A stretch of 37,603 nt of DNA from Peptococcaceae bacterium (GTDB taxonomy: Bacteria > Bacillota > Peptococcia > DRI-13 > UBA5745), in NCBI GenBank assembly GCA_031264885.1, contig JAISDM010000081.1, positions 1 through 37,603 of the forward strand, given 5' to 3'. The notes beneath the pieces are model-generated. The model was given only the letters and a program-made list of their open reading frames with translations. It ran no database searches and was not told where the DNA came from. Below, piece after piece: positions 9,059-27,293 of this stretch; within the stretch, counting starts at the first letter, position 1, and every line of letters begins with the position of its first letter. The position numbers and the translations under genes are program-made.

Positions 9059-9062
9059 TTTT

Positions 9063-10409: not shown

Positions 10410-10429
10410 AAAAGATCAGTCTCCTCTCG

Positions 10430-12395: not shown

Positions 12396-12441
12396 CTTAT
12401 CCTGCCTGTTGTTTGCTCGTATTAGGCGCCGCGGCGAATCC

Positions 12442-13332
12442 TTACAGCACTGCGGAGGGCGTGATTTCGTCCGCGAGGCTTCGGGGGGCGCCTTCCGGCC
12501 CGGAGCCGGTCTCCGGCGATTCTGTGTCATGCAGCAATTCCCATATCCGGTGTACGATGACGCCGTAATCGGCGGAGGCGCGCGCGTCGGCGTTAAACCG
12601 GGGGCGCGGCAGACGGATATCAACGATGTCTTTGATGCGCCCCGGGCGCGGTGTCATCACGACGACCCTGTCGGCCAGGAGTACCGCCTCCTCAATGCTG
12701 TGCGTGACGAAGATCACGGTTTTTTTTGTTTTGCCCCAGATCTTCAGAAGCTCATCCTGGAGGGTTTCTCTCGTCTGGGCGTCCACAGCGGCAAAGGGTT
12801 CGTCCATCAGAAGCACTTTAGGATCATAAGCCAGGGACCGGGCGATGGCGACCCGCTGCCGCATACCGCCCGACAGCTCGTTGGGATAGCGTTCCTCGAA
12901 GCCGTTCAGATCCACCAGGTCGATGTATGTCCGCGCGATCTCGGTTCGTTCTTTCTTGGGAATCCGCTTGACTTCAAGCCCGTACTCCACGTTGCGCAGC
13001 ACGGTGCGCCATGGAAAAAGAGCGTAGCCCTGCATAATAAAGCCTCTGTCCAGATTCGGCCCGGCGACTTCGCGGCCGTCGATGGTGATGCTTCCGCCCT
13101 TGGATTTGGTCAGCCCCGCGATAATATCCAACAGTGTGGATTTGCCGCATCCCGAAGGCCCGACGATGGAGACGAAGGCGCCGTCTTCTATGGAAAGGCT
13201 GAAACTCTCCAGGGCGACAAACTCTTCAAGCTGTTTCTTCCCCGGATTTCTTATATAATAGACTTGCTTCAGATTGTTGAGGATAATCTTCGCGTTACCG
13301 GCGCTTCCCAAAGCCGCTTCCATCAATGTCAT
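12442..13332 (-). CDS. ABC transporter ATP-binding protein, NitT/TauT family
   Basis: Walker A GPSGCGKSTLL, signature LSGGMRQRVAIARSL, Walker B LLMDEPFAAVD. The start is ambiguous. The ATG at 13332 overlaps the binding-protein stop (TAATG). The ATG at 13323 sits 11 nt from GGGAGG. Confidence 0.8.
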   Translation of the reverse strand: MTLMEAALGSAGNAKIILNNLKQVYYIRNPGKKQLEEFVALESFSLSIEDGAFVSIVGPSGCGKSTLLDIIAGLTKSKGGSITIDGREVAGPNLDRGFIMQGYALFPWRTVLRNVEYGLEVKRIPKKERTEIARTYIDLVDLNGFEERYPNELSGGMRQRVAIARSLAYDPKVLLMDEPFAAVDAQTRETLQDELLKIWGKTKKTVIFVTHSIEEAVLLADRVVVMTPRPGRIKDIVDIRLPRPRFNADARASADYGVIVHRIWELLHDTESPETGSGPEGAPRSLADEITPSAVL

Positions 13333-14414: not shown

Positions 14415-14601
14415 AATGAGCGACTCCTTTCATAAGGACTTGTTGAATGATTCCCAAGCCCTGTACAAATAGATACAGTAAAGCCGCCGGATTCAACAGT
14501 CGCCCATACCGCCCTTGCCGCACATCGCGAGATATTTCGACGTTCTCAACATAACCACGACCCCCAGTAAATTTATAATACATATAAAATTAGTATGATT
14601 T

Positions 14602-14630
14602 ATTATAATACCGGCATTTTGATTTGTCAA
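14602..14630 (-). promoter_or_regulatory. Consensus sigma-A promoter for the ABC-cysK-nitrogenase-like operon (TTGACA-17-TATAAT)
   Basis: The minus strand reads TTGACA (14630-14625), a 17-nt spacer, then TATAAT (14607-14602). This predicts a leader of about 180 nt before the ATG at 14414. Confidence 0.65.
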
Positions 14631-14769
14631 GCGTCAAAATTGCGGGGCGTCGTTCTGTTCCGTGTCCATATATGGTGTTGACGATGCGATTTTTGACGTT
14701 TTCGGATGGTCTGGCCCGTCTTTGACGGACGCGAATTTCCGGGCTGTGAAAAAATCCTTGAAAAAAGCA

Positions 14770-14797
14770 TTGACTTTTTATTTACATATGATATAGT
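14770..14797 (+). promoter_or_regulatory. Sigma-A promoter for the patB-Mo-enzyme-peptide operon (TTGACT-16-TGaTATAGT, extended -10)
   Basis: TTGACT at 14770-14775, TG at 14789-14790, TATAGT at 14792-14797. RBS GGGAGG at 14862-14867 precedes the ATG at 14875. Confidence 0.55.
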
Positions 14798-14874
14798 ATT
14801 ATTATATAACATATCAAACATATATATAATATGGTTAAAACTGTACAGACGTTTTAATATAGGGAGGCGAGAAA

Positions 14875-16053
14875 ATGCGCGATGATCAAAATAAAAGCGA
14901 CCGATATGATTTTGACGCCGGACTTGATCGCCGCGGAACCAACTGCGTGAAATGGGATACCATTGAAGAAGGATATATTCCGATGTCTATCGCGGATATG
15001 GATTTTGGGACGCCGGCGCCGATTATAGAAGCGATCCGGCGCAGACTGGATCACCCCGCGTTCGGGTATGGCATCCGGAATACGGAGATGGTTGACGCGG
15101 TGATCGCGTGGTTTGGGCGTACATACGACTTTGAGCTGGACCGTTCCTGGATTGTTCCGCTGACCGGCATTTATTCCGCGCTCGCTTTCTTCTCCAGTCT
15201 GACGGACGGCGATGTGCTGACCGCGACGCCTAACTATCCGCCGATCCTCAGAGGGCCGGAACGTGTCGACCGCGCTTGCGTCTTTTCTCCTATGAAGAAG
15301 GCGGCGGAGACAAGGCTGGCGCGTTATGAGCTGGATTTCGAGGATCTTGAGCGTAAAGCCGCGGCGGATGTGGGCATGTATTCCATGTGCAGTCCGCATA
15401 ATCCCATCGGCCGGGTGTATACAAAAGAAGAACTGGAACGTTTGAGCGATTTTGCGCGCAAGCGGAAACTGGTTGTTCTGTCAGATGAAATACATAACGA
15501 ACTGATTTATGATCATCCGCATACGCCGTATTTGACGGTTGAGGGCGGGCTTGAATCCTCGGTGACGCTGATTTCCGCCGGGAAAACATGTAATATTCCC
15601 GGAATCCCCGCCGCGCTGGCCATTGTTCCGGACGAGGCGTTACGCGGGCGGGTCATCGCCGCCGCGTCCGGATTTGGCGGCGCCGGCGCGCTGAACACAG
15701 AGGCGCTGCGCGCGGCGTACGCGGAATGCGACGATTGGAAAAAGGCGCTTGTTTCCTATTTAAAAGAGAACCGAGATTATTTAGAAACCGAATTTCTGAG
15801 GCGCTTCCCAAAAATCCGGCTGACCCATACGGAAGGAACTTACTTGCAATGGGTGGATTTCAGCGGCTATGGCATTTCAAACGCCGCTCAATGGTTATTG
15901 GATCATCCAAAAATCGTGGCTCACGGCGGCAAAATGTTCGGCGGCGCGGAAAGCGAGGCGCGGATTAATTTTGGGTGTCCGCGTTCGCTCATTAAAGAAG
16001 CGCTGGACAGAATGGAGACGTCGCTGACGAGTTCTGAATTGAACGCGGTGTGA
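14875..16053 (+). CDS. patB: PatB/MalY-family PLP-dependent C-S lyase (cystathionine beta-lyase type, aminotransferase class I/II fold)
   Basis: The N-terminus YDFDAGLDRRGTNCVKWD is typical of MalY/PatB. The PLP-lysine motif is ISAGKTCNIPG. 392 aa. Confidence 0.8.
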   Translation: MRDDQNKSDRYDFDAGLDRRGTNCVKWDTIEEGYIPMSIADMDFGTPAPIIEAIRRRLDHPAFGYGIRNTEMVDAVIAWFGRTYDFELDRSWIVPLTGIYSALAFFSSLTDGDVLTATPNYPPILRGPERVDRACVFSPMKKAAETRLARYELDFEDLERKAAADVGMYSMCSPHNPIGRVYTKEELERLSDFARKRKLVVLSDEIHNELIYDHPHTPYLTVEGGLESSVTLISAGKTCNIPGIPAALAIVPDEALRGRVIAAASGFGGAGALNTEALRAAYAECDDWKKALVSYLKENRDYLETEFLRRFPKIRLTHTEGTYLQWVDFSGYGISNAAQWLLDHPKIVAHGGKMFGGAESEARINFGCPRSLIKEALDRMETSLTSSELNAV

Positions 16054-16081
16054 AAAAAGAAAAACCGGGAGGAGACTGACA

Positions 16082-18322
16082 ATGAGCGCGACAGATCAGC
16101 GTAATACGGCGGAGTTCCAGACATATAAGACCGGCGTGGTCGTGCCGGGTATCTGCGGAATTTGCGCGTCCAGCTGCCCGGTGGATCTGACCATACAGAA
16201 TCAGAAGATTGTGCGTGTGGAAGCGTCCAAAATACAGGGCGGAAGCGGGTATCTCTGCGCCAAAGGCGCGGCGGGGCGCGGCTATGTCTATCGCGAGGAT
16301 CGGCTCAAGACTCCGCTGAGACGCGTTGGAGCGCGTGGCGGGAACGCCTTTGAGCCCATCACATGGGACGAGGCTTACGCTGAGATCGCGGCAAAAACAG
16401 GCGCCATAAAATCAGCTTACGGCCCGGACAGTGTGGCTTTTTACACGGGTTATTCCAAATGGTACCGGCCTTTGCTGCACCGGCTGGCGCACAGCTTTGG
16501 CACGCTCAATTACGGCACCGAGTCCTCTAGCTGTCACCAGGCGTCTGTCATGGCTAACCTGGTCAGCGCGGGCGTCTATTGCCGGCCGGATGTGGCGAAC
16601 GCGGAGCTTTTGATCGCCTGGGGCGTAAATCCCTTCCACAGTGGGAATTTTTCCGGTGAGATGATGGAAATTCAGAAGGAAAAAGGGCTGCGCGTGCTGT
16701 GTGTGGATCCGCGGGTGACGCCGTATACGCAGCAGTACGCTGATATTCATCTGCGCCCGAAGCCTGGAACGGACGGCGCGCTGGCTCATTTTTTCGCGAA
16801 ATATTTGATCCGCGCGAAAAAAACCGACGCTGAATTTATTGAGAGGTACGTTCACGGTTATCCGCAATACGCGGAATATGTCGAAGCTTTTGACATTGCT
16901 TCCGTGTCCCGCGTTACGGGCATATCCGAGAAGGAACTGCGGGCCGCCGCTCAGCTTATCGCCAGACACAGCCGGCGCTTTACGATACAGGTGAGCCAGG
17001 CCGCGATCACGCATCATATCAACGGGTTTCAATCCTATCGCGCGATCATCGCCTTATGCGCCATTACGGGAAATGTGGATCGGGAAGGCGGGCTGATTCC
17101 GATGGAGTATCCCGGGAAGGACGACCGGCTGAACAAGCCGCGCCTTTTAACAGAGGAATTTATTCAGCAAACCCGGCCCGATCACGCCAAACCGAAGATC
17201 GGTTCCGAGCGGTTCCCCCTTTGGTCGGAACTGATCGATGAATTTCAGGCGATGGATCTTTGGCGCAATATTTTGGAAGGAACACCCTATCCCATTAAGG
17301 CGGTCATCGCCTTTGGAATGAACGTTCACATGTTTCCGGGAAACGCCAAACTCTTTGAAGCCTTGAGCGCGTTGGACTTCTATGTGGATGTGGATATTTT
17401 TGACACGGATTCGGCAAAATACGCGGATATCATTCTGCCCGCGTGTTCTCCCTATGAGCGCACCGAGCTTATCGGCGCCATGGGCGGCGGCATACGTTAT
17501 TCCCAGCCCGCGATTCCTCCGCTGTACGAATCCCGTTCGGACGCGGACATCATCAGTCAGTTGGCGGCGGCGTTCGATTTGGACGATCCTTTGCTGAGAA
17601 GAGGCTATGACGCTTGCAGCCGTTCTATGCTGCGGGAAATCGGACTTACAATGGACGATTTGAAGGAATCTCCCGCCGCGCGGCGGATTCCGGGTAAACT
17701 GCCATATTTCACGGGTCATTGCCTGCGGAACGGGTTTGATACGCCGACCGGCAAGTACGAGTTGTATTCGGAACGTATCGCGAAATATCAGGATCGGTAT
17801 CCGTATGATCCGCTGCCGGTATTTGTGCCGCCGATTGAGGCGGAGGACGAAGGGGATGAACGGTTTCCGCTGACGCTGACAGTGGGCGGCAGGCTGCCTC
17901 ACGCGTTCCACTCCCGTTTCCACAATGTACGCTGGGCAAGAGCGCTGCGACCGGACGCAGCCGCGGATATTCATCCGGGCGACGCCGGAAGAATGGGGAT
18001 CCAACAGGGCGATTCTATCGCCATAGCCACAGCAAACGGGGAGATTACCGCCAAAGCCAATCTGACATGGATGGTTCCGGAAGGGTCTGTCTTTATGTTC
18101 CAGGGTTATGTGGAGGCGGACGCCAACGCGATTCTGGGAGCGGAACATCTGGATCCTTATTCCGGATTCCCGGGATACCGTTCCAACAAGTGCGCGGTCA
18201 GAAAGATAAACGCCGTGGCGCCGGTCAAAATTACAAAGGCCGCGAAACCGGTCAAGTTGGCCAAAGCGGCCGGAATCGCAAAGGAGCCGCGAAAGGAATT
18301 GGAGGTGAGCGTCCGAAAATGA
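16082..18322 (+). CDS. Molybdopterin (Mo/W-bisPGD, DMSO-reductase superfamily) oxidoreductase catalytic subunit, cytoplasmic
   Basis: 746 aa. The N-terminal FS0 cluster motif is CGICASSCPV...YLCAKG. There is no twin-arginine or signal sequence. The domain order is typical of the family. The C-terminus is a Lys/Ala-rich tail. Confidence 0.8.
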   Translation: MSATDQRNTAEFQTYKTGVVVPGICGICASSCPVDLTIQNQKIVRVEASKIQGGSGYLCAKGAAGRGYVYREDRLKTPLRRVGARGGNAFEPITWDEAYAEIAAKTGAIKSAYGPDSVAFYTGYSKWYRPLLHRLAHSFGTLNYGTESSSCHQASVMANLVSAGVYCRPDVANAELLIAWGVNPFHSGNFSGEMMEIQKEKGLRVLCVDPRVTPYTQQYADIHLRPKPGTDGALAHFFAKYLIRAKKTDAEFIERYVHGYPQYAEYVEAFDIASVSRVTGISEKELRAAAQLIARHSRRFTIQVSQAAITHHINGFQSYRAIIALCAITGNVDREGGLIPMEYPGKDDRLNKPRLLTEEFIQQTRPDHAKPKIGSERFPLWSELIDEFQAMDLWRNILEGTPYPIKAVIAFGMNVHMFPGNAKLFEALSALDFYVDVDIFDTDSAKYADIILPACSPYERTELIGAMGGGIRYSQPAIPPLYESRSDADIISQLAAAFDLDDPLLRRGYDACSRSMLREIGLTMDDLKESPAARRIPGKLPYFTGHCLRNGFDTPTGKYELYSERIAKYQDRYPYDPLPVFVPPIEAEDEGDERFPLTLTVGGRLPHAFHSRFHNVRWARALRPDAAADIHPGDAGRMGIQQGDSIAIATANGEITAKANLTWMVPEGSVFMFQGYVEADANAILGAEHLDPYSGFPGYRSNKCAVRKINAVAPVKITKAAKPVKLAKAAGIAKEPRKELEVSVRK

Positions 18323-18828
18323 GTGAAAGAGTCATAGCGTTTAATTTTCATCCTGAATTGTGCGTTGGCTGCGGGCGATGTATCACCACTTGTCTGGATG
18401 TCAATGATATTGACCTGGACAAGTTTTTGCCGCTTCGAACATTGACTGTCAAGGAGTCCATACGTGACGGCGGTAAGATCCGGATTGAATACTACACCGC
18501 GGCGTGTATGCACTGTGAAGATATGCCCTGTGCCAAAGCGTGCCCTCAAGGCTGTTACCGAAAAGACGCGCGGACGGGACTTGTGATTCTTGATAATTCG
18601 GAATGCGCCGGATGCGGCAAATGCGCCGCCGTCTGCCCTTTTTCCGCCATTAAGTTTTGTGAGCGCAAGGCGGTCAAGTGTACGGGCTGTATTGACCGGG
18701 TGCGGGAGAACTTACTCCCGGCTTGTGTCGCGTGCTGCTCCAGAAAGGCCATTACCGTGGACGAACGGAATCTGGTACTGCGGAAAGGCCGCAGACAATT
18801 GAAACAGGCTTTAAGAGCCAGGGCTTAG
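18319..18828 (+). CDS. 4Fe-4S ferredoxin-type electron-transfer subunit (DmsB/PsrB-like)
   Basis: The ATG at 18319 overlaps the upstream TGA (ATGA), and GGAGGTGAG lies at 18301. Four Cys groups are present: CVGCGRCITTC, CMHCEDMPCAKAC, CAGCGKCAAVC and CTGC...CVACC. The ORF-track start at 18067 lies inside the previous gene. Confidence 0.85.
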   Translation: MSERVIAFNFHPELCVGCGRCITTCLDVNDIDLDKFLPLRTLTVKESIRDGGKIRIEYYTAACMHCEDMPCAKACPQGCYRKDARTGLVILDNSECAGCGKCAAVCPFSAIKFCERKAVKCTGCIDRVRENLLPACVACCSRKAITVDERNLVLRKGRRQLKQALRARA

Positions 18829-18862
18829 GAGAACAAGAAAAAACCAGGAAGGATTTGTAAAT

Positions 18863-20563
18863 ATGAAAAAAATATTTTATAATAGGAAATCATTATCATT
18901 AACGCTTATAACCTTTTTATTTTTCAGCCTTGCGGCTGCTTGCGGCGGAAGAGCCGCAGAACCGGCGGATTCTCAGGGAAGTACGGCGGCGTCGGGCGAA
19001 CCGGCGTCCGGCATAGACGAAGTTTCGGATAATGAAGAAGTGGTTTTGAATGTAAACGTAACGGCAGAACCCACCAGCTTTGACCCGAACGCGGGTATCG
19101 GAGACACGCTGATGTTTACGAACGGGCATTTATATGAAGCGGTGACACGCCTTGATGATAACGATAATCCCGTCCCCGGCATGGCTCTGGACTGGACGGT
19201 TTCCGACGACGGACTGACCTATGAGTTCACCATTCGCGGCGACAACGGCTGGTCGAATGGGGCTAAAGCGACAGCCGCCGACTTTGAGTATGGCATAAAG
19301 CGTATTTTATCTCATCAGATCGGCGAAAATTGGGCGTTCCTTGTTTTTGATATTAAGAACGCGGCGGCCGCTTTTTCGGGTGATGTCCCTCTTGACGAAG
19401 TGGGGATTAAAGCCGACGGAAACAAGCTGACAATCACACTTGAGCATCCCGAAGCGTATTTCCCGAGATTATTGACATTCGCGCCTTATTTCGGCGTGAA
19501 TCAGGAGTTTGTGGAAAGCACAAATGGCAGATACGGAACGGAGGCGGCGTTAACCATTTCCAGCGGTCCGTATTATGTTGATTCCTGGGAGCATGATAAT
19601 CTGATCGTTCTCCGCAAAAATCCCTATTATTGGAACAAGGACAACATCAAAATCGATAAAATTAATATCTATGTCATCGGCGACGAAAATACGGCAATTA
19701 ATCTGTTCCAGACAGGCGAGCTGGACATCATTGATTTTTCAGGCGAGAAAAAAAATATAGTCGAGGCTAACGGCGGCAATGTTCAGACTTATCAGAACGG
19801 CAGAAGCGTGTACTTGCAGGCTAATTTAAGAAACGCTGTAAGCGGCAACAAGAAAATACGTCAGGCGATTTCCTCCGCGATTGACCGCGAGTTGTTCGTG
19901 ACGGGCGTTTTGAAAGACGCGTCATCGCCCGCGGAAGGCTTGGTTGCCGGAGGGATCGCGTCAGGCGTGCCAAGCAGAACGTTCCGCGATTTGACAGGCA
20001 AGACGCTCGTATATGATTATGACCCTGACAGGGCTCAGGCGTTATTCGGCGAAGGATTGGCGGAGCTGGGAATAACCGCGGCGGACATTGAGTTAAGATT
20101 GATCTCCCGCAATTCGGAACCTTATATGAAGGCGACGGCCGCTTTACAGGAAATGCTTCAGAATACCTTCGGCATTAAAATAAACGCCGAATCGCTGGAA
20201 TCGACCTCTTACACAGCGACGAGAAGCGACATGAATTATGATTTCTGTCTCGTGAGCTGGGGCGCGGATTGGGATGATCCTACGACATTCCTGTATGAAG
20301 GCGTTTTAGGCGATTATGTTAACCCGCAATATGCCGACAGTTCCGCTTATTTAAAAGCGCTTCACGATGCGGAAACGATCCGCGATCCGCTGGAGCGGGC
20401 CGAATCTCTCGCCGACGCGGAAAGAGCGATACTCGAGGATACCCCTTTGATTCCGATTTGGTCGGAAGCGAGATTCTACGCCGTCGCGGACAAAGTGAGA
20501 GGTACACACAGAAGGGCAATCGTACCATATCTTGATATTGTGAAAGCGGAAATAGTCAAATGA
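18863..20563 (+). CDS. ABC transporter substrate-binding lipoprotein, family 5 (peptide/nickel/glutathione type, OppA/DppA/GsiB-like)
   Basis: Lipobox LAAAC. 566 aa. Family-5 pattern (LDWTVSDDGLTYEFTIR, NPYYW). Confidence 0.85.
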   Translation: MKKIFYNRKSLSLTLITFLFFSLAAACGGRAAEPADSQGSTAASGEPASGIDEVSDNEEVVLNVNVTAEPTSFDPNAGIGDTLMFTNGHLYEAVTRLDDNDNPVPGMALDWTVSDDGLTYEFTIRGDNGWSNGAKATAADFEYGIKRILSHQIGENWAFLVFDIKNAAAAFSGDVPLDEVGIKADGNKLTITLEHPEAYFPRLLTFAPYFGVNQEFVESTNGRYGTEAALTISSGPYYVDSWEHDNLIVLRKNPYYWNKDNIKIDKINIYVIGDENTAINLFQTGELDIIDFSGEKKNIVEANGGNVQTYQNGRSVYLQANLRNAVSGNKKIRQAISSAIDRELFVTGVLKDASSPAEGLVAGGIASGVPSRTFRDLTGKTLVYDYDPDRAQALFGEGLAELGITAADIELRLISRNSEPYMKATAALQEMLQNTFGIKINAESLESTSYTATRSDMNYDFCLVSWGADWDDPTTFLYEGVLGDYVNPQYADSSAYLKALHDAETIRDPLERAESLADAERAILEDTPLIPIWSEARFYAVADKVRGTHRRAIVPYLDIVKAEIVK

Positions 20564-21528
20564 TGCTCAATTATGTCATAAGGCGTGTGGGGATTTCTCT
20601 GCTCACAATTTTTGTCATAATAACTGTGACGTTTTTCCTGATGTACATGCTGCCCGGCACGCCCTTCCTCGGCGACAGACCCTTGCCGGAGGCCGTAGTC
20701 GCCGCAGCGAACGCGAAATATGGTTTGGATAAGCCGATCGCGGAGCGTTACATCATATATTTGTCCAATATAATCCACGGGGATTTCGGAACCTCAACCG
20801 TATACACAAACAGGGATGTGACAAGCATTATCAAGACCGCTTTCCCCGTTTCCGCGAGTCTCGGAATACGCGCGTTAATTTTCGGAGTGACCGGAGGAAT
20901 ACTCTTAGGTATATACAGCGCGCTTCACCATAATAAATTAGGGGACAGCGTATCTACAGTAGTCGCCATTATCGGCGTATCAATACCGAGCTTTATTTTG
21001 GGGACGATGCTGCAATACGCTCTGGGCGTAAAAGTCAGCGGTCTTTTTAAAGATATTTTCAACACTGATTACCAGCTTTTTCCCTTAGCGCGGTGGGAAA
21101 GTTTCCGCTACACGCTCATTCCTACCTTTGTGTTGGGTTTGGGTTCGCTGGCGGGCGTCATGCGAATGATGCGTTCCTCCATGCTGGAGGTCGTAAATCA
21201 GGATTATATTAAAACAGCGAAGTCCAAAGGGCTGGGCGGAACCGCGATCACATGGCGGCATATGGCGCGCAACGCGATCATGCCCGTATACACTGTCGTC
21301 GGTACGATGACGGGTGTGATACTAACCGGCTCTTTTGTTATCGAAAACATTTTTAGTATTCCCGGACTCGGCAAGTATTTTGTCAATAGCGTCAGTTCCC
21401 GGGATTACCCGATGACAATAGGGCTTACCCTGTTTTTCGCGATTTTCATAGTTTTCGTCAATATGTTCATCGACTTGGGCTACGGTCTGATCGACCCCCG
21501 GATTCGCATAGCAAAGGGAGAAAAATAA
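20560..21528 (+). CDS. Peptide ABC transporter permease (OppB/DppB-like)
   Basis: The N-terminus MLNYVIRR and the EAA loop (YIKTAKSKGL) match the family. It overlaps the upstream stop (ATGA). Confidence 0.85.
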   Translation: MMLNYVIRRVGISLLTIFVIITVTFFLMYMLPGTPFLGDRPLPEAVVAAANAKYGLDKPIAERYIIYLSNIIHGDFGTSTVYTNRDVTSIIKTAFPVSASLGIRALIFGVTGGILLGIYSALHHNKLGDSVSTVVAIIGVSIPSFILGTMLQYALGVKVSGLFKDIFNTDYQLFPLARWESFRYTLIPTFVLGLGSLAGVMRMMRSSMLEVVNQDYIKTAKSKGLGGTAITWRHMARNAIMPVYTVVGTMTGVILTGSFVIENIFSIPGLGKYFVNSVSSRDYPMTIGLTLFFAIFIVFVNMFIDLGYGLIDPRIRIAKGEK

Positions 21529-21529
21529 T

Positions 21530-22432
21530 ATGGCGGATTTTACCCCTATCCCGAAAAATATTGAAGAGTCCAACCGGTCCGTGAGAGTGTTCGTCAGCTA
21601 TGGCAAAGACGCGTGGAATCGTCTGAAAAAAAATAAGGTCGCCGTCGCGTCTCTCGTGTTTATTATTTTTGTAATATTGTTCGGTTTCGCGGGTTCGGTT
21701 TTTTTCCCGAATTACACCAAACAAAATTTATTGAACACCTTCGCGCCTCCGGGTTCTCCCGGCGCGCCTTTAGGTACCGATGAGCTCGGGCGCGACCTTC
21801 TGTCGCGGCTCGTGAGAGGAACCAAAATATCCATTTCCATAGGGCTTACTGTGGCTACGATCAATATTATTATCGGTTCGGTATACGGCGGGATTGCCGG
21901 TTATTTTGGCGGGGCGGCCGACATGATCATGATGCGTATTGTCGATATCGTTATATCCATACCTGAAATGATTATTTTAATTTTATTGCTTACCATAATT
22001 TCAAAAGGGATGCCGACACTTATTTTAGCGTTATGTCTTACGGGTTGGACAGGAACGGCGAGGTTGGTGCGGGGTCAGGTACTCCAACTGCGGGAGCAGG
22101 AATATATACTGTCGGCGCGAGTGCTGGGCGCGGGTAAATTCTTTATTATTTTAAGACATCTGCTTCCGAACGCGATAGATCCCATAATCGTGCGTTTCGC
22201 GATGAGTATCCCGGGCGTGATTTTTGCCGAGGCGTTCTTGAGTTATATTGGTCTTGGCGTATCGATACCCGACGCGAGCTGGGGAAATTTGGCTCAGGTC
22301 GGCTCGAATCAATTCCCGAATTATTTATGGCTGTTTTTCATGCCCGCGACACTGTTCAGTTTAACGATGCTCGCTTTTAATCTTTTGGGCGACGGTCTGC
22401 GCGACGCGCTTGACCCTAAGCAGAGGTGGTAA
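21530..22432 (+). CDS. Peptide ABC transporter permease (OppC/DppC-like)
   Basis: PLGTDELGRDLLSRL motif and the EAA loop EYILSARVLGAG. 300 aa. Confidence 0.85.
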   Translation: MADFTPIPKNIEESNRSVRVFVSYGKDAWNRLKKNKVAVASLVFIIFVILFGFAGSVFFPNYTKQNLLNTFAPPGSPGAPLGTDELGRDLLSRLVRGTKISISIGLTVATINIIIGSVYGGIAGYFGGAADMIMMRIVDIVISIPEMIILILLLTIISKGMPTLILALCLTGWTGTARLVRGQVLQLREQEYILSARVLGAGKFFIILRHLLPNAIDPIIVRFAMSIPGVIFAEAFLSYIGLGVSIPDASWGNLAQVGSNQFPNYLWLFFMPATLFSLTMLAFNLLGDGLRDALDPKQRW

Positions 22433-22436
22433 CACG

Positions 22437-23480
22437 ATGGGCGATCATATGCTCGAAATTAAAGATTTACGCGTCTCCTTCCATACATATGCCGGGGAGG
22501 TTCAAGCTCTCGGCGGCATAAATTTCACCGTTGGGCAAAGTGAGATTCTTGCCGTCGTCGGTGAGTCAGGCTGCGGAAAATCCGTGACCGCTCAAAGTAT
22601 TTTGCGGCTGCACAATAAAGATACCATTGATTATAAACAAGGGGAAATCCTGTACAAGGGCCGTGATCTTCTCGCCCTTTCCGAAAAAGAGATGCAAAAA
22701 ATACGCGGACGGGAAATAAGCATGATTTTTCAGGATCCTATGACTTCGCTTAACCCGACGCTGACAATCGGCAAACAGATCACGGAAGCAATTTTGAAAC
22801 ATAGCGATAAAGAAGGAAATTCAACGAACCAAAGAGAAGCAAATAAACAAGCTGCCGGGTTAATCCGTTCCGTCGGTATAGCGAACCCAGATTTGCGGTT
22901 AAAACAATATCCCCATGAATTGTCGGGAGGTATGCGTCAGCGAATCATGATCGCTATAGCTATGTCATGCTCACCTGAAATTTTAATCGCCGACGAGCCG
23001 ACTACGGCTCTTGACGTGACGGTGCAGGCGCAGATTTTGGATTTGATGAAAGCATTGCAGATAAAAAGCGGCGCGTCCATTGTCATTATTACGCATAACA
23101 TGGGTGTCGTCGCTAATATCGCCCAAAAGGTGATCATAATGTATGGCGGCGTTGTTGTTGAAAAAGGAACGTCGGGGGACATTTTCTACCGCCCGAAGCA
23201 CCCATATACATGGGGATTGTTAAAGTCTATTTTCCGGCTAAACAAGGACAAAAACGAACCGCTTATTCCGATTGACGGGATACCGCCCGATTTGCTCGCG
23301 CCGCCAAAGGGATGCCCGTTCGCGCCGCGGTGCGATTACGCGATGAAAGTTTGCCGCGAACAAATGCCCCGGGAATATAGTTTCGGATCGGCTCATACTT
23401 GCGACTGCTGGTTATCCGACGAGAATTGTCCGCTTGAGGTAAAGGATTGGAGGAATGGTGATGTCAAATATAAACAGTAA
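22437..23480 (+). CDS. Peptide ABC transporter ATPase (OppD/DppD-like)
   Basis: Walker A GESGCGKS, signature LSGGMRQR, and a C-terminal oligopeptide-type Cys motif. I chose the ATG at 22437 (GAGGTGG 6 nt upstream) over the ORF start at 22410. Confidence 0.85.
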   Translation: MGDHMLEIKDLRVSFHTYAGEVQALGGINFTVGQSEILAVVGESGCGKSVTAQSILRLHNKDTIDYKQGEILYKGRDLLALSEKEMQKIRGREISMIFQDPMTSLNPTLTIGKQITEAILKHSDKEGNSTNQREANKQAAGLIRSVGIANPDLRLKQYPHELSGGMRQRIMIAIAMSCSPEILIADEPTTALDVTVQAQILDLMKALQIKSGASIVIITHNMGVVANIAQKVIIMYGGVVVEKGTSGDIFYRPKHPYTWGLLKSIFRLNKDKNEPLIPIDGIPPDLLAPPKGCPFAPRCDYAMKVCREQMPREYSFGSAHTCDCWLSDENCPLEVKDWRNGDVKYKQ

Positions 23481-24477
23481 TACGGACGTTAACCATTCCA
23501 ACCCGCTGCTTGAAGTCCGCAGCTTAAAAAAGTATTTCAAGGTCGGCAGACGCCAATTCCTTAAAGCTGTCGACGGTATTACATTTCATATTTATCAGGG
23601 CGAAACGTTCGGGCTTGTCGGCGAGTCAGGCTGCGGAAAAAGCACAACCGGCCGCGCTATCGCGAGGCTTTACAGTTTAACCGGCGGTGAAATTCTTTAT
23701 GACGGCATGGATATAAGCAAATTTAAGGGCAAGGCGGCGACGCGATACGCGTTCGACGTACAGATGGTTTTTCAAGACCCTTACGCGTCGCTTGATCCGC
23801 GTATGACGGTTGAAAGTATTGTCGCGGAGGGGATGAAGATTCACCGCATGTATAACAGCGAACAAACCCGCGCTAAAGTTTATGAGCTTTTGGAAAAAGT
23901 CGGGTTAAACAAGGAACACGCCGCGCGCTTTCCCCATGAGTTCTCCGGCGGGCAGCGCCAGCGTATCGGGATTGCGCGGGCTTTAGCGGTTAATCCGAAA
24001 TTTTTGGTTTGTGACGAGCCCGTTTCCGCTCTCGATGTTTCGATACAAGCGCAGATTATTAATCTTTTGCGCGATTTACAAAGGGAATTTAATCTTACTT
24101 ATCTGTTTATCGCGCATGATTTGTCGCTTGTCAAGTATCTTTCCGACAGAATCGGCGTGATGTACCTTGGCTCGCTCCTGGAAGTCGCGCCGGCGGAGGA
24201 ATTGTATAAAAACCCGCTTCATCCATATACCCGCGCTCTTCTTTCGGCGATTCCTGTTCCCGATCCGGCTGAAGAGAGCGAACGAACACGTATTTTGTTA
24301 CAAGGTGATGTACAAAGCCCGATAAACACACCTGAGCAATGTAAATTTTACTCCCGATGCAAATACGCCGAAGCCCGCTGCCGTGAACGCATTCCGCCGC
24401 TTGTGGAAACGACTGAAGGACATTGGATCGCGTGCGCTTTGAATAAAGAATTAAATACGGACGCTTACGCAATATAA
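23455..24477 (+). CDS. Peptide ABC transporter ATPase (OppF/DppF-like)
   Basis: Walker A GESGCGKST, signature FSGGQRQR, Walker B LVCDEPVSALD. The start is either ATG 23455 or ATG 23461. Confidence 0.85.
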   Translation: MVMSNINSNTDVNHSNPLLEVRSLKKYFKVGRRQFLKAVDGITFHIYQGETFGLVGESGCGKSTTGRAIARLYSLTGGEILYDGMDISKFKGKAATRYAFDVQMVFQDPYASLDPRMTVESIVAEGMKIHRMYNSEQTRAKVYELLEKVGLNKEHAARFPHEFSGGQRQRIGIARALAVNPKFLVCDEPVSALDVSIQAQIINLLRDLQREFNLTYLFIAHDLSLVKYLSDRIGVMYLGSLLEVAPAEELYKNPLHPYTRALLSAIPVPDPAEESERTRILLQGDVQSPINTPEQCKFYSRCKYAEARCRERIPPLVETTEGHWIACALNKELNTDAYAI

Positions 24478-24505
24478 AGTGTCCTGACGGAAAGGCGGAT
24501 AAATT

Positions 24506-25960
24506 ATGTCTGTTGTGTATTCTTTTGAAATTGAATCTCCGTTTGACACACTGATTGTCGATGTGCGCGAAGATGGAACGGTTAGCGCGAAATGCCCCGA
24601 TATTCAAAAAATCTTCGCGAGCCTTAACGAGAACGAAAAAGAAAATCAGTCGTTCGGAACCCGGGTTTTTGGAATCACATTTAACGGGCAGAGTTATGAC
24701 AAAATCGTTTTTGTACGCAGATCGGACAAACTGACACCGCGAAAGGTTCGCCAGCGGTATGGCGCGGCAGCCAAACTCACCGGCAATCTCCACGGGGAAA
24801 ACGCCGTATATATTCCCGACGAAACGACGCCGAAAGAATGGTTCACGACGATTACGGAAGGCTTTTTGCTCGGGCAGTATAAATTCGGCAAATACGCGAA
24901 AAAGCCGCCGAAAGCGCCGGCAAAAATCGTTATAGCATTCGCGGAAAATATCCGCGCGGAAATTGAAGAAGGCAATTGGCTCGCGGAAGCGGCATATTTG
25001 GCGCGGGATTTATCTTTCGAGCCGGCGAATGTGGCGACGCCTGAGGAAATAGCCCGTCAGGCCGAATCCATCGCGGAAATTCCAGGCGTAAAAGCAGAAG
25101 TTTTTGGCAAAAATGAAATACAAGCTTTAAGGCTCGGCGCGTTTCTCGCCGTTTCGCGGGGGAGCGCGCGGGAACCAAAATTAATTACAATTGATTATGA
25201 CGGCGCGCCGCAAAGCGCGGAACGGCTCGCGCTTATCGGGAAAGGCATTTGTTTTGATTCGGGCGGTTACTGCATAAAACAATATGAAGGTATCACGTCG
25301 ATGAAAAGCGATATGGAAGGAGCGGCAGTCGTACTCGGTGCTGTTTCCGCGATTGCGAAGGCTAAACTCAAGTTTAACATTACTGTTATCGTCGCCGCTT
25401 GTGAAAATTTGATTTCGGGCGAAGCGGTTTTACCCGGCGATATCATTGAATCACGCAGCGGAACGCAAATAGAGATTGTGAACACCGACGCGGAAGGACG
25501 GCTTACGCTTGCCGACGCTTTAACTTACGCGATAGAAGAAAAAAAAGCGACGCGTCTTTTGGACATAGCTACTCTGACAGGAGCCTGCGCAATGGCGTTA
25601 GGCAGTCAATATATCGGGACATTCTCAAGTGACGAGGATTTTTATAAACTTATTGAGGAAAGTTCCCGCCTTTCGGGAGAAGATATTTGGCGTCTTCCTT
25701 TATCGGAGGAATATAAAATACTGAACCGCTCGGAAGTCGCTCATATTAAAAATGTTGGCGAGCGCGCCGCCGGCGCGATAAGCGCGGCGCTGTTCCTTCA
25801 GGAATTTACAGGCGGCTTGCCGTGGATACATCTTGATATAGCAGGCGCGTCGAGAAGCGGCAAAGACAAGGAAATTTTTGCCGTCGGCCCCACCGGCGCC
25901 GGTACGGCGCTGCTTTATAATTTAGTTAAAAATTTGGCTGAGGAGGGAACCTCGAAGTGA
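24506..25960 (+). CDS. pepA: Leucyl aminopeptidase, M17 family
   Basis: Signature VNTDAEGRL, MKSDMEGAA and GKGICFDSGG. Confidence 0.9.
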   Translation: MSVVYSFEIESPFDTLIVDVREDGTVSAKCPDIQKIFASLNENEKENQSFGTRVFGITFNGQSYDKIVFVRRSDKLTPRKVRQRYGAAAKLTGNLHGENAVYIPDETTPKEWFTTITEGFLLGQYKFGKYAKKPPKAPAKIVIAFAENIRAEIEEGNWLAEAAYLARDLSFEPANVATPEEIARQAESIAEIPGVKAEVFGKNEIQALRLGAFLAVSRGSAREPKLITIDYDGAPQSAERLALIGKGICFDSGGYCIKQYEGITSMKSDMEGAAVVLGAVSAIAKAKLKFNITVIVAACENLISGEAVLPGDIIESRSGTQIEIVNTDAEGRLTLADALTYAIEEKKATRLLDIATLTGACAMALGSQYIGTFSSDEDFYKLIEESSRLSGEDIWRLPLSEEYKILNRSEVAHIKNVGERAAGAISAALFLQEFTGGLPWIHLDIAGASRSGKDKEIFAVGPTGAGTALLYNLVKNLAEEGTSK

Positions 25961-27027
25961 GCAACACCCGAATCCAAAATGTCATGGATAACCTGCAAAA
26001 AATGGGCTTGACGCAACTATTGATTTCCGACATGACCGCTATTTATTATTTAACGGGACAGCGGTTTTTCCCCGGGGAACGTCTTGTCCTCCTGCATATC
26101 AGCACAGGCGGAAACACACTGTATTTGAACGAACTCAGTCAGGAAACGGAACCGATAAAAGATGTGGAAACCATTCGTTTTTCGCTTGGCGACGACGGTC
26201 TCTCCCGCGTAATAAAGGGAATCGGGAAGGGTGCTCTCGGCGTGGATAAAAATCTGCCTGCCCGGTATCTTATTCCCTTACTTCACGAAAGCGGCGCCGG
26301 CGACGTCATTGTCGCGTCCGAGGCGGTCGATCGGGCGCGGGCCCGAAAAGACATTCAGGAACAGGCGTACATGGCCGAAAGTTCCGAAATTAACGACCGC
26401 GCTATGGAACAGTTTGAAAAACTTATTCAGGAAGGCGTTACGGAACGGGGCGTTCAAGAACAGATGCGCGGGATTTATAAAGAATTAGGCGCGGACGATA
26501 TAGGATTTGGCTTCTCCGCCTTTGGAGCGAACGCCGCGGAACCGCATCACGCGAGCGACGATACGGTTCTCAAAGAAGGTGACTGCGTCGTCCTTGATGT
26601 GGGGTGTATCAAGTATGGATATTTTTCAGATATGACGCGGACTTTTTTCTATAAAAGCGTATCGGGCCGGCATCGCGAAATTTACGAAATTGTCAAGCTG
26701 GCAAACGAAACGGCCCAAAAAATCGTTCGCCCAGGAGTGCGTTTTTCCGATATAGACAGGACGGCGCGGGATATAATCGCGGCGGCGGGTTACGGCGAAT
26801 ATTTTATTCACCGGCTCGGCCATTCCATCGGATTGCAAATGCATGAATACGGTGATGTTTCGGCTTATAACGATGATCTCGTCGAGGAAGGCATGATTTT
26901 TTCCATTGAGCCGGGCATTTATCTGCCGGGGGATTTCGGCGTGAGGATAGAGGATTTGGTCTTGGCGACAGAGAACGGGGTTCGTTCGCTGAATGGGTAT
27001 TCGAAAGAATTGAAAGTGATTGATTGA
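25957..27027 (+). CDS. M24-family Xaa-Pro dipeptidase / aminopeptidase P-like
   Basis: Metal-ligand pattern VLDVGCIKYGYFSDMTRT, HRLGHSIGLQMHE, FSIEPGIY and RIEDLV. The GTG start overlaps the pepA stop (GTGA). Confidence 0.85.
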   Translation: MSNTRIQNVMDNLQKMGLTQLLISDMTAIYYLTGQRFFPGERLVLLHISTGGNTLYLNELSQETEPIKDVETIRFSLGDDGLSRVIKGIGKGALGVDKNLPARYLIPLLHESGAGDVIVASEAVDRARARKDIQEQAYMAESSEINDRAMEQFEKLIQEGVTERGVQEQMRGIYKELGADDIGFGFSAFGANAAEPHHASDDTVLKEGDCVVLDVGCIKYGYFSDMTRTFFYKSVSGRHREIYEIVKLANETAQKIVRPGVRFSDIDRTARDIIAAAGYGEYFIHRLGHSIGLQMHEYGDVSAYNDDLVEEGMIFSIEPGIYLPGDFGVRIEDLVLATENGVRSLNGYSKELKVID

Positions 27028-27059
27028 CGATGCGGTTTTTGTCGTTCCCGGACGGTTTC

Positions 27060-27208
27060 GGGCGGCAGGATGCCGCCCCTACGGTAGTATGAATGATGCG
27101 TCTGTGTGGGACGGCGTTCTGTCACCGGGCTATGGATGACGCGTCTGTGTGGGACGGCGTTCTGCCGCGGATGACGCGTCCGTCCGTAGGGGCGGCATTC
27201 TGCCGCCC
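27060..27208. repeat. REP-like repeat cluster: an inverted pair of the 25-nt hairpin unit GGGCGGCAG(G/A)ATGCCGCCCCTACGG flanking degenerate ~40-bp direct repeats
   Basis: The unit lies at 27060-27084 (+) and 27184-27208 (inverted). Direct repeats GATG(A)CGCGTCTGTGTGGGACGGCGTTCTG lie at about 27094 and about 27135. The same unit occurs at 29083 and 37523. Confidence 0.85.
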
Positions 27209-27293
27209 GGTTTTGACAGACGCGGCGGCAGAAGATTGACGGCTGCGCGTTATTGTGGCATACTCTTTTTAGGGGTCATAAGGAGGGTTGAGG

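Follow-up and report, generated by a model that had tools for sequence, protein, structure and literature searches.

A mosaic ten-gene operon with a C-S lyase, a predicted cytoplasmic molybdoenzyme and a peptide importer, and its possible role in sulfur salvage

The window, i.e. the whole stretch of 37,603 nucleotides that was analysed, comes from a contig of a Peptococcaceae bacterium (JAISDM010000081.1) and carries ten genes on the + strand at 14875-27027 (Table 1). Their coordinates, families and tight spacing are as described in an earlier note made from the letters of this DNA. The successive intergenic gaps, computed from the coordinates, are 28, -4, 34, -4, 1, 4, -26, 28 and -4 nt, all ten genes are preceded by a GGAGG-like ribosome-binding site, and the FeS start codon overlaps the MoA stop codon (ATGA). 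For FeS and OppD the longest-ORF start lies too early and was corrected. A single promoter is predicted for the ten genes. Terminator-like matches are absent from every intergenic gap of the unit; those on its + strand (21886-21899 and 25894-25912) both fall within coding sequence, and their count is below that in shuffles. Past the last stop codon, a stretch of 220 nt forms a hairpin (-115 kcal/mol, z = -5), which is likely the 3' end of the transcription unit. A scan of the window for riboswitches or T-boxes found none. We infer that the ten genes are co-transcribed. That they make up one transcription unit built from three modules is a tentative reading, held jointly with the whole sulfur pathway proposed below at slightly less than even chances.

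Table 1. Features of the operon, of its borders and of the divergent Nfl operon
Feature	Position	Strand	Remarks
Nfl operon	5225..14414	-	SsuA-like SBP, ABC ATPase, permease, CysK, NflK, NflD, NifH-like, NifB-like
AT-rich operator-like element	14575..14611	-	overlaps Nfl -10/+1; CATAC-N7-ATATG
Promoter-like site, Nfl operon	14602..14630	-	TTGACA-17-TATAAT, 12/12 (perfect)
33-nt direct repeat bracketing the + operon, copy 1	14678..14710	+
Promoter-like site, ten-gene operon	14770..14797	+	TTGACT-16-TATAGT with TG (TGnTATAGT); sigma-70-like
AT-rich operator-like element	14796..14832	+	just downstream of ten-gene -10 box; CATAT..ATATG palindromes
PatB/MalY-family PLP-dependent C-S beta-lyase	14875..16053	+	392 aa
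MoA, catalytic Mo/W-bisPGD oxidoreductase subunit	16082..18322	+	746 aa; Fe4S4, Molybdopterin, Molydop_binding domains
FeS, DmsB-like poly-ferredoxin subunit	18319..18828	+	169 aa; four Cys groups
SBP_bac_5 family-5 solute-binding lipoprotein	18863..20563	+	DppE/OppA type; lipobox LAAAC
OppB-type permease	20560..21528	+
OppC-type permease	21530..22432	+
OppD-type ATPase	22437..23480	+
OppF-type ATPase	23455..24477	+
M17 leucyl aminopeptidase	24506..25960	+	NTDAEGRL motif present
M24B PepQ-like Xaa-Pro dipeptidase/aminopeptidase	25957..27027	+
33-nt direct repeat, copy 2	27024..27056	+	begins inside M24 stop codon
Long, very stable hairpin of REP-like palindromes	27033..27238	+

The operon is a mosaic of a PatB-family C-S lyase, the molybdoenzyme MoA-FeS, and an Opp-type importer with an M24 prolidase and an extra M17. 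The lyase has its PLP lysine within the motif SAGKTCN, finds a cysteine-S-conjugate beta-lyase as its top PDB match (E 2e-75), scores 168 bits to cystalysin (1c7n) and, with 314 bits, lies slightly below the 340 cut-off of TIGR04350. The binding protein has B. subtilis DppE as its nearest structure and OppA as its top NCBIfam model. An identity as the glutathione importer GsiB, which the earlier note had named as a member of the family, is not supported (65 bits for a cut-off of 594).

The Opp-M24 module is generic, since orthologs with 61-78% identity stand alone beside housekeeping genes (tig/clpPX, sugar genes); M24 orthologs with 61-63% identity come after OppF in two loci (L088, L089). 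M17 is absent from the orthologous modules and is therefore an insertion specific to the window operon. It lies near MoA in none of the other loci among the 86 MoA loci compared. GC3 is about 0.60-0.64 in PatB and MoA, 0.57 in FeS and 0.50-0.59 in the Opp and peptidase genes, with 0.66-0.79 in the genes flanking the operon. This drop, and the higher values of the flanks, suggest from composition a recent fusion or acquisition.

Hence, one might think of an accident: a nutrition module of Opp, M17 and M24 that feeds on ordinary peptides, fused behind an unrelated PatB-MoA-FeS set with which it shares no substrate. The solitary Opp-M24 modules, the DppE/OppA-like binding protein, the unique linkage of M17 and the step in GC3 at the FeS/SBP5 junction all fit such an event. 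So does the 33-nt direct repeat, whose 23-nt core occurs twice in the window for zero expected copies, because its bracketing of the operon suggests recombination. Yet, the order MoA-FeS-SBP5 is kept in the closest relative, a second MAG (L082; MoA 71%, SBP5 72% identity), and orthologous Opp genes (61-76%) adjoin the MoA locus in L081. Moreover, in an independent distant clade of four loci (L020, L029, L034, L060) the order is PatB-flavoprotein-MoA-FeS-M24, with M24 directly after FeS and Opp genes nearby in all but L034, and the 34-nt FeS-SBP5 gap of the window is too short to house a separate promoter clear of the coding sequence. We thus regard accidental fusion as unlikely, if a serious contender. 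The link with peptide genes drawn by the earlier note recurs in these six loci, but is loosened by the orthologs of 62-63% identity in which Opp and M24 stand alone.

MoA-FeS belongs to a widespread, uncharacterised Clostridial clade that is about equidistant from acetylene hydratase, formate dehydrogenase (FDH), Psr, Arr and Nap; the literature searched held no characterised member. MoA has the FS0 cysteines C25, C28, C32 and C59 and a disordered C-terminal tail (712-746), and C151 is its predicted metal ligand. We call the enzyme putatively cytoplasmic because MoA has no twin-arginine (Tat) leader and the operon no membrane-anchor gene of any kind. The known S-/N-oxide reductases (DmsA, DorA, BisC, TorA) have a serine as metal ligand; the predicted cysteine thus speaks against the earlier idea of an S-oxide reductase, and acetylene hydratase, FDH, Arr and Nap all rank above these enzymes in the structure search.

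Two other chemistries must be weighed here. In the first, the enzyme would have nothing to do with sulfur and be a formate dehydrogenase, an assimilatory nitrate reductase or a hydratase akin to acetylene hydratase. The top NCBIfam model of MoA is indeed Fdh-alpha (287 bits), acetylene hydratase leads its fold matches (TM 0.78), and the pair C151-H152 mimics the Sec-His pair of FDH. But the Fdh-alpha score is far under the cut-off of 666, the position of FDH Arg333 is not conserved, His152 is found in some members only, and no nitrite reductase or formate genes lie nearby. The aspartate that follows the second FS0 cysteine in acetylene hydratase, where it has a known role, is an alanine in MoA. 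We give this possibility very little credence. The second chemistry keeps the pathway logic and replaces S=O by S-S bonds, MoA-FeS being a cytoplasmic enzyme related to the reductases of polysulfide, thiosulfate or tetrathionate. It would act either on organic disulfides or on what PatB-type lyases set free from cystine, S-sulfocysteine or cysteine sulfoxides (persulfides, polysulfides, thiosulfate or thiosulfinates), and would yield sulfide or thiol for CysK. C151 aligns with Cys173 of PsrA, and PhsA is the second NCBIfam model (268 bits); against this, the PhsA cut-off is 694, all family scores being far too low, PsrA comes only 16th in the structure search, and both Tat signal and NrfD-type anchor are missing.

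The neighbourhoods of MoA bear on both chemistries. Among the 86 loci, window included, the FeS partner adjoins MoA in 84 and a PatB-family gene lies within 8 kb in 33, for a chance rate of about 1% (a rough estimate rather than a computed figure). Seven of the eight PatB-family neighbours that were tested score 370-420 bits with TIGR04350, above the cut-off of 340, and the eighth, in L081, scores 336.7. The coupling of PatB with MoA-FeS claimed by the earlier note is thus real and conserved, and recurs in many gut Clostridia. In the closest clade (20 loci with at least 50% identity), an SsuA-like binding protein is found in 10 loci, CysK in 4 and an SBP_bac_3 ABC importer in 3, some ABC importer being present in about 16 by our tally. 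Close relatives commonly have the order SBP-(CysK)-ATPase-permease-MoA-FeS; elsewhere MoA-FeS is joined to interchangeable importers (SsuA-like ABC, cystine/S-methylcysteine-type ABC, amino-acid permease or Opp) and has cysteine and methionine genes as neighbours.

TcyK (YtmK) is among the PDB matches of the SBP_bac_3 partner, whose second NCBIfam model is a cystine binder; together with the CysK that is adjacent in several loci, this favours S-S chemistry. In contrast, methyl-sulfur or methionine, rather than sulfide or cysteine, is indicated by a SAM riboswitch (86.8 bits) that, together with a terminator hairpin, precedes SBP3-permease-ATPase-PatB-MoA-FeS in Clostridium sp. OS1-26, the only such riboswitch found in a scan of 35 related loci, and by URO-D and corrinoid genes. 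A MoA-FeS homolog heads an ABC-URO-D-corrinoid-URO-D-RACo cluster in C. difficile (L032), another lies in or beside a URO-D methyltransferase cluster in A. tundrae, and on a metagenome contig (L084) a corrinoid-protein gene is directly upstream of MoA, with a URO-D gene in the convergent set. We therefore consider S-S chemistry rather improbable. The proposed role of URO-D/corrinoid clusters is in methyl-sulfur or methyl-selenium metabolism, most of them being assigned to methyl-selenium (bioRxiv 10.1101/2023.07.31.551370). These homologs, including the two with corrinoid proteins (L032 and L084), might then suggest that MoA reduces selenoxides, selenite or methylseleninate in methyl-selenium salvage, with the sulfur genes as bystanders. 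This is highly improbable, for Sel, URO-D and corrinoid genes are absent from the window and the closest loci, and the partners that prevail are CysK, SsuA-like importers, PatB and the SAM riboswitch. The sulfur context that the earlier note saw in the molybdoenzyme is thus borne out in its relatives, and a sulfur-related role of the operon is fairly well supported. Since the PatB-MoA pairing recurs beside sulfur-metabolism genes in many gut Clostridia, PatB and MoA-FeS probably recover sulfur from oxidised or S-substituted amino acids or peptides.

The operon on the other strand, divergent from the ten genes, is nitrogenase-like (Nfl) and of Mar-like type; its NflD and NflK match methylthio-alkane reductase structures (9fmg/9d9u) with 210 and 227 bits. 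The AT-rich element at the Nfl promoter is an inverted copy of the one at the ten-gene promoter, with 27 of 37 positions identical, a value reached by 2 of 1000 dinucleotide shuffles. A CATAT-N7-ATATG-like palindrome is common to the promoters of Mo and Nfl operons, in the window and in other loci, and this hints that the two may be co-regulated. The earlier note had joined both operons into one organosulfur island. Checked at the level of gene neighbourhoods, their linkage is confined to this contig: none of the remaining 85 Mo loci has it, nor do the three closest Nfl loci. In relatives, MoA-FeS holds the position in the SBP-(CysK)-ATPase-permease cassette that NflKDHB holds in the window. 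The organosulfur interpretation is thus partly supported: its sulfur link, its PatB coupling and the recurring tie to peptide genes are borne out, and GsiB and, at the level of gene neighbourhoods, the co-occurrence with Nfl are not.

Taken as a salvage pathway, the mosaic would have PatB and the soluble two-subunit Mo/W-bisPGD reductase as its core, served here by an ordinary Opp oligopeptide system and M24 prolidase that M17 supplements. Opp would take up peptides with oxidised or S-substituted sulfur amino acids, and M17 and M24 would trim them to free amino acids. MoA-FeS would then reduce the oxidised sulfur group by two electrons, drawn at low potential through the Fe-S chain; candidates are a sulfoxide (Met-SO, S-alkyl-cysteine sulfoxide) or an S-S or S-oxide product. 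PatB would eliminate thiol or sulfide, leaving pyruvate and ammonium, and the sulfur would be assimilated, CysK being encoded next door. We hold this import, trimming, reduction and cleavage to be possible at nearly even chances. The order of steps, the substrate (S-oxide or S-S) and the special nature of the imported peptides, hence a peptide-specific route, are our suppositions.

Several observations run counter to the pathway: the Cys ligand, the generic Opp-M24, the GC3 drop, the lack of riboswitch or T-box in the window, the uncharacterised clade, the single SAM riboswitch in 35 loci, and the closest relative L082, which has no PatB upstream of MoA.

Among known systems, E. coli BisC and DmsABC and H. 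influenzae MtsZ share with MoA the Mo-bisPGD superfamily and the fold (TM 0.73-0.74), at 18-19% sequence identity. All three rescue sulfur amino acids by sulfoxide reduction, and BisC is cytoplasmic. They use a Ser ligand, and BisC and MtsZ are not known to have FS0 or an Fe-S partner; in MoA the ligand is Cys151, FS0 is present and the partner carries four clusters. PsrABC and PhsABC resemble MoA-FeS in their Cys-ligated Mo subunit and four-cluster ferredoxin subunit, and act on sulfur substrates, as we propose for MoA. Yet, they are periplasmic (Tat-exported) and have an NrfD-type quinol-oxidising anchor, and MoA-FeS lacks both traits. Treponema denticola turns glutathione into H2S with GGT, an M17 cysteinylglycinase and the PatB/MalY-family cystalysin, releasing sulfide from a Cys-containing peptide. 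The window likewise pairs an M17 aminopeptidase with a PatB/MalY-family lyase, but GGT is missing, the importer resembles Opp/DppE and is not glutathione-specific, and the window adds MoA-FeS to a route that in T. denticola is not known to include a molybdoenzyme.

The Type 1 mlp clusters of Kountz and Balskus are likened to the window through C. difficile L032, with its MoA-FeS homolog at the cluster head; the window lacks corrinoid and URO-D genes, and the main text of bioRxiv 10.1101/2023.07.31.551370 contains no word starting with "molybd" and no "oxidoreductase". MarBHDK and IsrBHDK perform anaerobic sulfur salvage and are tied to SsuA/TauA-like ABC importers and CysK (PMC13474568), with catalytic machinery entirely different from MoA-FeS. 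In C. ljungdahlii, an operon of a transporter and PatB (CLJU_RS13650-13635) is induced under conditions inferred to be sulfur-limiting (PMC5640608). Operons of this type lack MoA-FeS, Opp and peptidases and have an SBP_bac_3 amino-acid importer, but they keep importer and PatB-like lyase together as in the window, and their layout sits ahead of MoA-FeS in two loci (L012 and L085).

The ten open reading frames under study run head to tail on the + strand at 14875-27027 of the window, which is a complete 37.6-kb contig of a MAG, and their identities were assigned by Pfam, NCBIfam and PDB comparison. Intergenic gaps measure between -26 and +34 nt, and a Shine-Dalgarno sequence precedes every gene. 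A promoter-like TTGACT-16-TGnTATAGT is predicted 78 nt 5' of the first ATG, and a predicted perfect consensus promoter on the opposite strand faces away from the operon. A terminator scan of the operon found none in any intergenic gap; two + strand terminator-like matches (21886-21899 and 25894-25912) lie inside coding sequence, in a scan whose total was below that of the shuffles. Directly 3' of the last stop, a stretch of 220 nt is predicted to form a hairpin (-115 kcal/mol, z = -5). A single transcription unit is very probable, and coordinates, gaps and family assignments all agree with the ten-gene operon described in the earlier note.

Genes of the ten-gene operon and the evidence for their assignment
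Feature	Coordinates	Strand	Evidence
PatB/MalY-type C-S lyase (PatB)	14875-16053	+	TIGR04350 314 bits (cut-off 340); best structure cysteine-S-conjugate beta-lyase, E 2e-75
Mo/W-bisPGD catalytic subunit, 746 aa (MoA)	16082-18322	+	Fe4S4, Molybdopterin, Molydop_binding domains
DmsB-like ferredoxin, 169 aa (FeS)	18319-18828	+	four cysteine groups
Family-5 binding lipoprotein (SBP5)	18863-20563	+	nearest structure B. subtilis DppE; top NCBIfam model OppA
Two OppB/C-type permeases	20560-22432	+	Pfam, NCBIfam comparison
Two OppD/F-type ATPases	22437-24477	+	Pfam, NCBIfam comparison
M17 aminopeptidase	24506-25960	+	NTDAEGRL motif
M24B PepQ-like peptidase	25957-27027	+	Pfam, NCBIfam, PDB comparison

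Elsewhere in the window, REP-like palindromic repeats (GGGCGGCAGAATGCCGCCCC) occupy intergenic regions at 27059-27209, 29067-29225 and 37519-37601. The copies at 29067-29225 lie within the longest ORF of a carboxyltransferase gene, whose real start codon is probably further 3'. A BspA-type leucine-rich-repeat protein (5-2953) runs off the contig start, and its gene contains, especially at 1763-2200, a long degenerate tandem repeat of 9 nt (3 aa).

MoA matches PF00384 (150 bits), PF01568 (72 bits) and PF04879, and its AF2 model (pLDDT 85) reaches TM 0.72-0.78 to many members of the Mo/W-bisPGD (DMSO reductase) superfamily, of which MoA is a member by its domains and its predicted four-domain fold. 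The FS0 motif Cx2Cx3Cx(n)C is present, with C25, C28, C32 and C59 invariant in 18 homologs. Cys151, equally invariant in these, aligns with FdhH Sec140 and PsrA Cys173 and is hence the predicted metal ligand. The likeness of the model is about equal to acetylene hydratase, formate dehydrogenases, ArrA, Nap and PsrA (TM 0.73-0.78, 20-24% identity), with acetylene hydratase 2e7z as the top match; DorA, TorA and MtsZ are slightly less similar. Every NCBIfam score is far under its cut-off, with 287 against a cut-off of 666 for Fdh-alpha (TIGR01591), 268 against 694 for PhsA, 233 against 778 for dmsA_ynfE and 145 against 1018 for bisC_fam.

Known functions of the superfamily can be weighed against these residues. 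The S- and N-oxide reductases DmsA, DorA, BisC and TorA use serine as protein ligand to Mo; an S-oxide reductase of the DmsA/BisC type was rejected given an invariant Cys151 and no Ser at the ligand position, and scores far under the cut-offs. The hallmark of formate dehydrogenases is a Sec/Cys-His pair plus a catalytic Arg (FdhH Arg333). The window MoA has C151-H152, most homologs carry F, M or Q in place of the His, which only some keep, and the Arg333 position aligns with ...PMEY... and is not conserved; together with the low TIGR01591 score this speaks against an FdhF-type enzyme. Acetylene hydratase has an Asp (Asp13) directly after the second FS0 cysteine, where the window reads C28-A29 and the family consensus has Ser, and we discarded this function despite the top fold match. 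PsrA/PhsA, a type that has a Tat leader and an NrfD-type membrane subunit, was likewise dismissed, there being no RR motif in the N-terminus (MSATDQRNTAEF...) and no membrane-anchor gene in the operon. The lack of a twin-arginine leader and of an anchor gene indicates that the MoA-FeS pair would be a soluble cytoplasmic heterodimer. Within the Cys-ligated branch of the superfamily, MoA is part of an orphan clade, and in the literature we found neither a characterised member of this clade nor a described PatB-molybdoenzyme operon. MoA residues 712-746 (window 18196-18322) form a Lys/Ala-rich C-terminal tail with predicted disorder. The homologs listed mostly have only about 690-720 aa, with the exception of P0003 (61% identity, 759 aa).

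The family is large: 1,610 proteins matched among 8,000 scored candidates, and at least 563 stretches in a collection with one genome per species encode a MoA relative. Carriers, several of them cultured isolates, include Acetobacterium tundrae, Clostridium sp. OS1-26, some C. difficile, Faecalibacterium, Anaerotruncus, Enterocloster, Lawsonibacter and Flavonifractor. We counted by tblastn the genes within 8 kb of MoA in 86 loci, split into a near clade (at least 50% identity) and a distant clade (41-49% identity).

Genes within 8 kb of MoA in related loci
Gene	All loci	Near clade	Distant clade
FeS subunit	84/86	20/20	64/66
PatB family	33/86	6/20	27/66
Pyr_redox_2 flavoprotein	54/86	0/20	54/66
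SsuA-like SBP	11/86	10/20	1/66
CysK	6/86	4/20	2/66
SBP_bac_3	3/86	3/20	0/66

The usual order in the distant clade is GntR-PatB-amino-acid permease-flavoprotein-MoA-FeS, the flavoprotein being presumably the electron donor on the NAD(P)H side. The near clade has a recurring SBP-(CysK)-ATPase-permease-MoA-FeS operon, and two loci show an SBP3-permease-ATPase-PatB-MoA-FeS operon, preceded in Clostridium sp. OS1-26 by a SAM riboswitch (86.8 bits) and a terminator hairpin. The analogous transporter-PatB operon of C. ljungdahlii is reported to be induced when sulfur was inferred to be limiting (PMC5640608). MoA-FeS of the sampled C. difficile genome stands at the head of an ABC-URO-D-corrinoid-URO-D-RACo cluster; this is a cluster of the 'type 1 mlp' kind, for which a role in the turnover of methyl-sulfur or methyl-selenium compounds has been proposed (bioRxiv 10.1101/2023.07.31.551370). 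A. tundrae and locus L084 have related layouts, the latter also with an Rrf2 regulator. Judged from these neighbourhoods, MoA-FeS is a conserved core joined to interchangeable importers and placed among cysteine and methionine genes, and the most economical explanation is a role related to sulfur. The comparative evidence supports such a sulfur role, and the interpretation given in the earlier note is thereby borne out in part.

Some of these loci have further features of their own. The A. tundrae locus (L004) encodes tandem MoA paralogs, MoA-FeS-MoA2, at 9977-14811, 3' of URO-D, an SsuA-like ABC importer and a response regulator. Moco/Wco riboswitches flank three MoA clusters (L006:12626-12741, L030:13058-13174 and L084:2534-2670), the last lying 5' of a FocA/NirC-type channel gene. 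Clostridiales-1 RNA (RF01699) is found inside two clusters, between CysK and the ABC ATPase (L025:7952-8115, 127 bits) and between GntR and PatB (L041:5809-5981, 146 bits).

The window PatB, a predicted C-S lyase, has cysteine-S-conjugate beta-lyases and PatB as its best PDB matches, and its PLP lysine is found in SAGKTCN. Among the PatB neighbours of MoA in other loci, seven of the eight tested score 370-420 bits on TIGR04350 (cut-off 340); that of L081, a near MoA relative, scores 336.7. Coupling of a C-S lyase with the molybdoenzyme, as first suggested from the window, gains comparative support from the PatB-family genes near MoA in 33 of the 86 loci.

The peptide genes have a different background. 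The importer, with SBP_bac_5, OppB/C-type permeases and two ATPases with an oligo_HPY domain, is of Opp/Dpp type, and all its components score under the NCBIfam equivalog cut-offs. Glutathione was among the possible substrates put forward in the earlier note, and this element is not supported: SBP5 scores 65.5 bits on the GsiB equivalog against a cut-off of 594, and OppA and DppE match better. M17 matches PF00883 at 371 bits, scores 466.7 on NF002083 (cut-off 468) and has the NTDAEGRL signature; the M24B peptidase has Creatinase_N and Peptidase_M24 domains, reaches no equivalog cut-off and is closest in structure to archaeal and bacterial prolidases. Orthologs of SBP5 (62-63%; OppB 77-78%, M24 61-63%) reside in self-contained SBP5-OppBCDF-M24 operons that adjoin trigger factor/ClpPX or sugar genes and lack PatB, MoA and M17. 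The 10 kb upstream of a 77% SBP5 ortholog contain no MoA, and that contig ends just past the gene. These stand-alone operons and the non-GsiB character of the binding protein show that the Opp-M24 module is generic in origin, and M17 is an addition specific to the operon in the window.

Base composition and repeats bear on the same question. GC3 is 0.60-0.64 in PatB and MoA, 0.57 in FeS and 0.50-0.59 from SBP5 through M24, against 0.66-0.79 in the divergent nitrogenase-like (Nfl) operon and the housekeeping flank. Values of 0.50-0.64 extend over 14875-27875, i.e. the operon plus a Uma2 gene, and by this measure the block is compositionally foreign. A 33-nt direct repeat (14678-14710 and 27024-27056, 85% identical) encloses exactly the promoter and all ten genes, its second copy starting in the M24 stop codon; its 23-nt core occurs twice in the window where none is expected. 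As the repeat was found in none of the 92 fetched related loci, it is not a family-wide element, and is perhaps a scar left by recombination or insertion. The generic origin of Opp-M24, the added M17, the drop in GC3 and the bracketing repeat together indicate a mosaic operon, recently assembled or acquired, and as a whole the ten-gene arrangement is idiosyncratic. The main rival reading is that a generic peptide-nutrition module was fused by accident onto a sulfur module. This seems to us less likely than not. Linkage to peptide genes recurs in separate lineages. The closest MoA relative (L082, 71%) keeps the order MoA-FeS-SBP5 (SBP5 72%), L081 (59%) has PatB-MoA-FeS beside convergent orthologous Opp genes (61-76%), and in the distant clade M24 lies directly 3' of FeS in four loci, three of which (L020, L029 and L060) also have Opp genes close by. 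Such recurrence argues for some functional coupling of MoA-FeS and peptide genes.

The Nfl operon encodes an SsuA-like SBP, an ABC ATPase, a permease, CysK, NflK, NflD, a NifH-like and a NifB-like protein. Its CysK is bona fide (433 bits against a cut-off of 351), and the best matches of NflD and NflK are the methylthio-alkane reductase structures 9fmg/9d9u (210 and 227 bits). The two operons had been proposed to form an organosulfur island, and we looked for the combination in other genomes. In the 85 other Mo loci, the 8-10 kb around MoA contain no homolog of NifH/D/K. A metagenome scan with NflD retrieved no close relatives; the three closest Nfl loci, obtained by protein-cluster look-ups (NflD 83-90%), keep SBP-ATPase-permease-CysK-NflK-NflD, with NifH-like and NifB-type genes nearby at varying positions, and have no PatB, MoA or Opp genes. 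Physical co-occurrence is thus not conserved at the level of neighbourhoods (0/85 and 0/3), and the idea of a conserved island linked to Nfl is not supported. The MoA-FeS of relatives follows an SsuA-like importer(+CysK) cassette of the same kind as precedes NflKDHB in the window, and MoA-FeS and NflKDHB appear to be alternative catalytic payloads. In L082, the gene divergent from MoA was considered as an Nfl-operon SBP and rejected, its sequence resembling a sortase fragment. Several NCBI records call homologs of NflD (7469-9058; PF00148, nitrogenase-component-1) 'oxalate:formate antiporter', apparently a misannotation that has spread between records. NflK and CysK are separated by a 143-nt gap with a 35-nt direct repeat (10453-10487 and 10517-10551, 89% identical).

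A link between the two operons may exist in their control. Rfam searches of the whole window and a more permissive intergenic scan gave no riboswitch, T-box or other sulfur-responsive cis-regulator; the ortholog operon of Clostridium sp. OS1-26 (L012) has its SAM riboswitch. Both divergent promoters have a similar 37-nt AT-rich element over -10/+1 (14575-14611 and 14796-14832), with 27 of the 37 positions alike; only 2 of 1000 dinucleotide shuffles match as well. CATAT-N(x)-ATATG palindromes, mostly N7, lie 4-14 nt 3' of -10 boxes at several operons, both of Mo (L001:558, L004:4689, L004:8857, L081:234) and of Nfl type (L090:354, L091:4683, L091:12666, L092:1809). A related palindrome, ACATATATGT, is at L082:317 in front of a MoA operon, and TATAATAAATCATA is common to this promoter and the Nfl promoter of the window. 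In L025 the palindrome is 5' of the operon and no -10 box was identified there. Over the 26 loci scanned, 11 of 12 intergenic matches were just 3' of -10 boxes. These positions are suggestive of candidate operators for a repressor common to Mo and Nfl operons. The palindrome-bearing promoters belong to several Firmicutes.

In the mechanism that we consider the most likely, the Opp-type system would bring in peptides, M17 and M24 would cut them to free amino acids, MoA-FeS would use low-potential electrons to reduce an oxidised sulfur group by two electrons, and PatB would release by beta-elimination thiol or sulfide, pyruvate and ammonium, the sulfur then being assimilated. That PatB-MoA-FeS serves sulfur metabolism seems to us reasonably probable. 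It is rather doubtful that peptides are its dedicated carriers. The neighbours (SAM riboswitch, S-methylcysteine-type transporters, URO-D/corrinoid methyltransferases) have a methionine and methyl-sulfur character that speaks for sulfoxides, for instance Met-SO or S-methylcysteine sulfoxide. The Cys ligand and the likeness to Psr/Phs speak for S-S or S-oxide products, among them persulfides, thiosulfate and thiosulfinates. A sulfoxide as substrate is a tentative proposal, and one we would not bet on.

The value of the finding as a lead lies in the orphan MoA-FeS clade and in a regulon that it possibly shares with nitrogenase-like sulfur enzymes. Several carriers of MoA are in culture, making the sulfur hypothesis directly testable. 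Should dietary sulfoxides or S-conjugates be substrates of MoA-FeS, the enzyme would matter for the production of H2S and methanethiol in the gut, and the DMSO-reductase superfamily would gain a new reaction type in its Cys-ligated branch. How strict anaerobes obtain sulfur from organic compounds without oxygenases is understood only in part, the nitrogenase-like Mar and Isr enzymes being the recent answers. MoA-FeS is a second candidate for anaerobic organosulfur use, habitually paired with a C-S lyase. One might speculate, as a rather improbable reading, that it is a new cytoplasmic Cys-ligated Mo/W class, co-controlled with Nfl by one putative CATAT-N7-ATATG repressor, with both branches of the regulon co-localised in the window. 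If true, MoA-FeS would be an alternative for anaerobes to Mar and Isr for freeing assimilable sulfur from oxidised or substituted organosulfur, served by the same importer-CysK/PatB cassettes.
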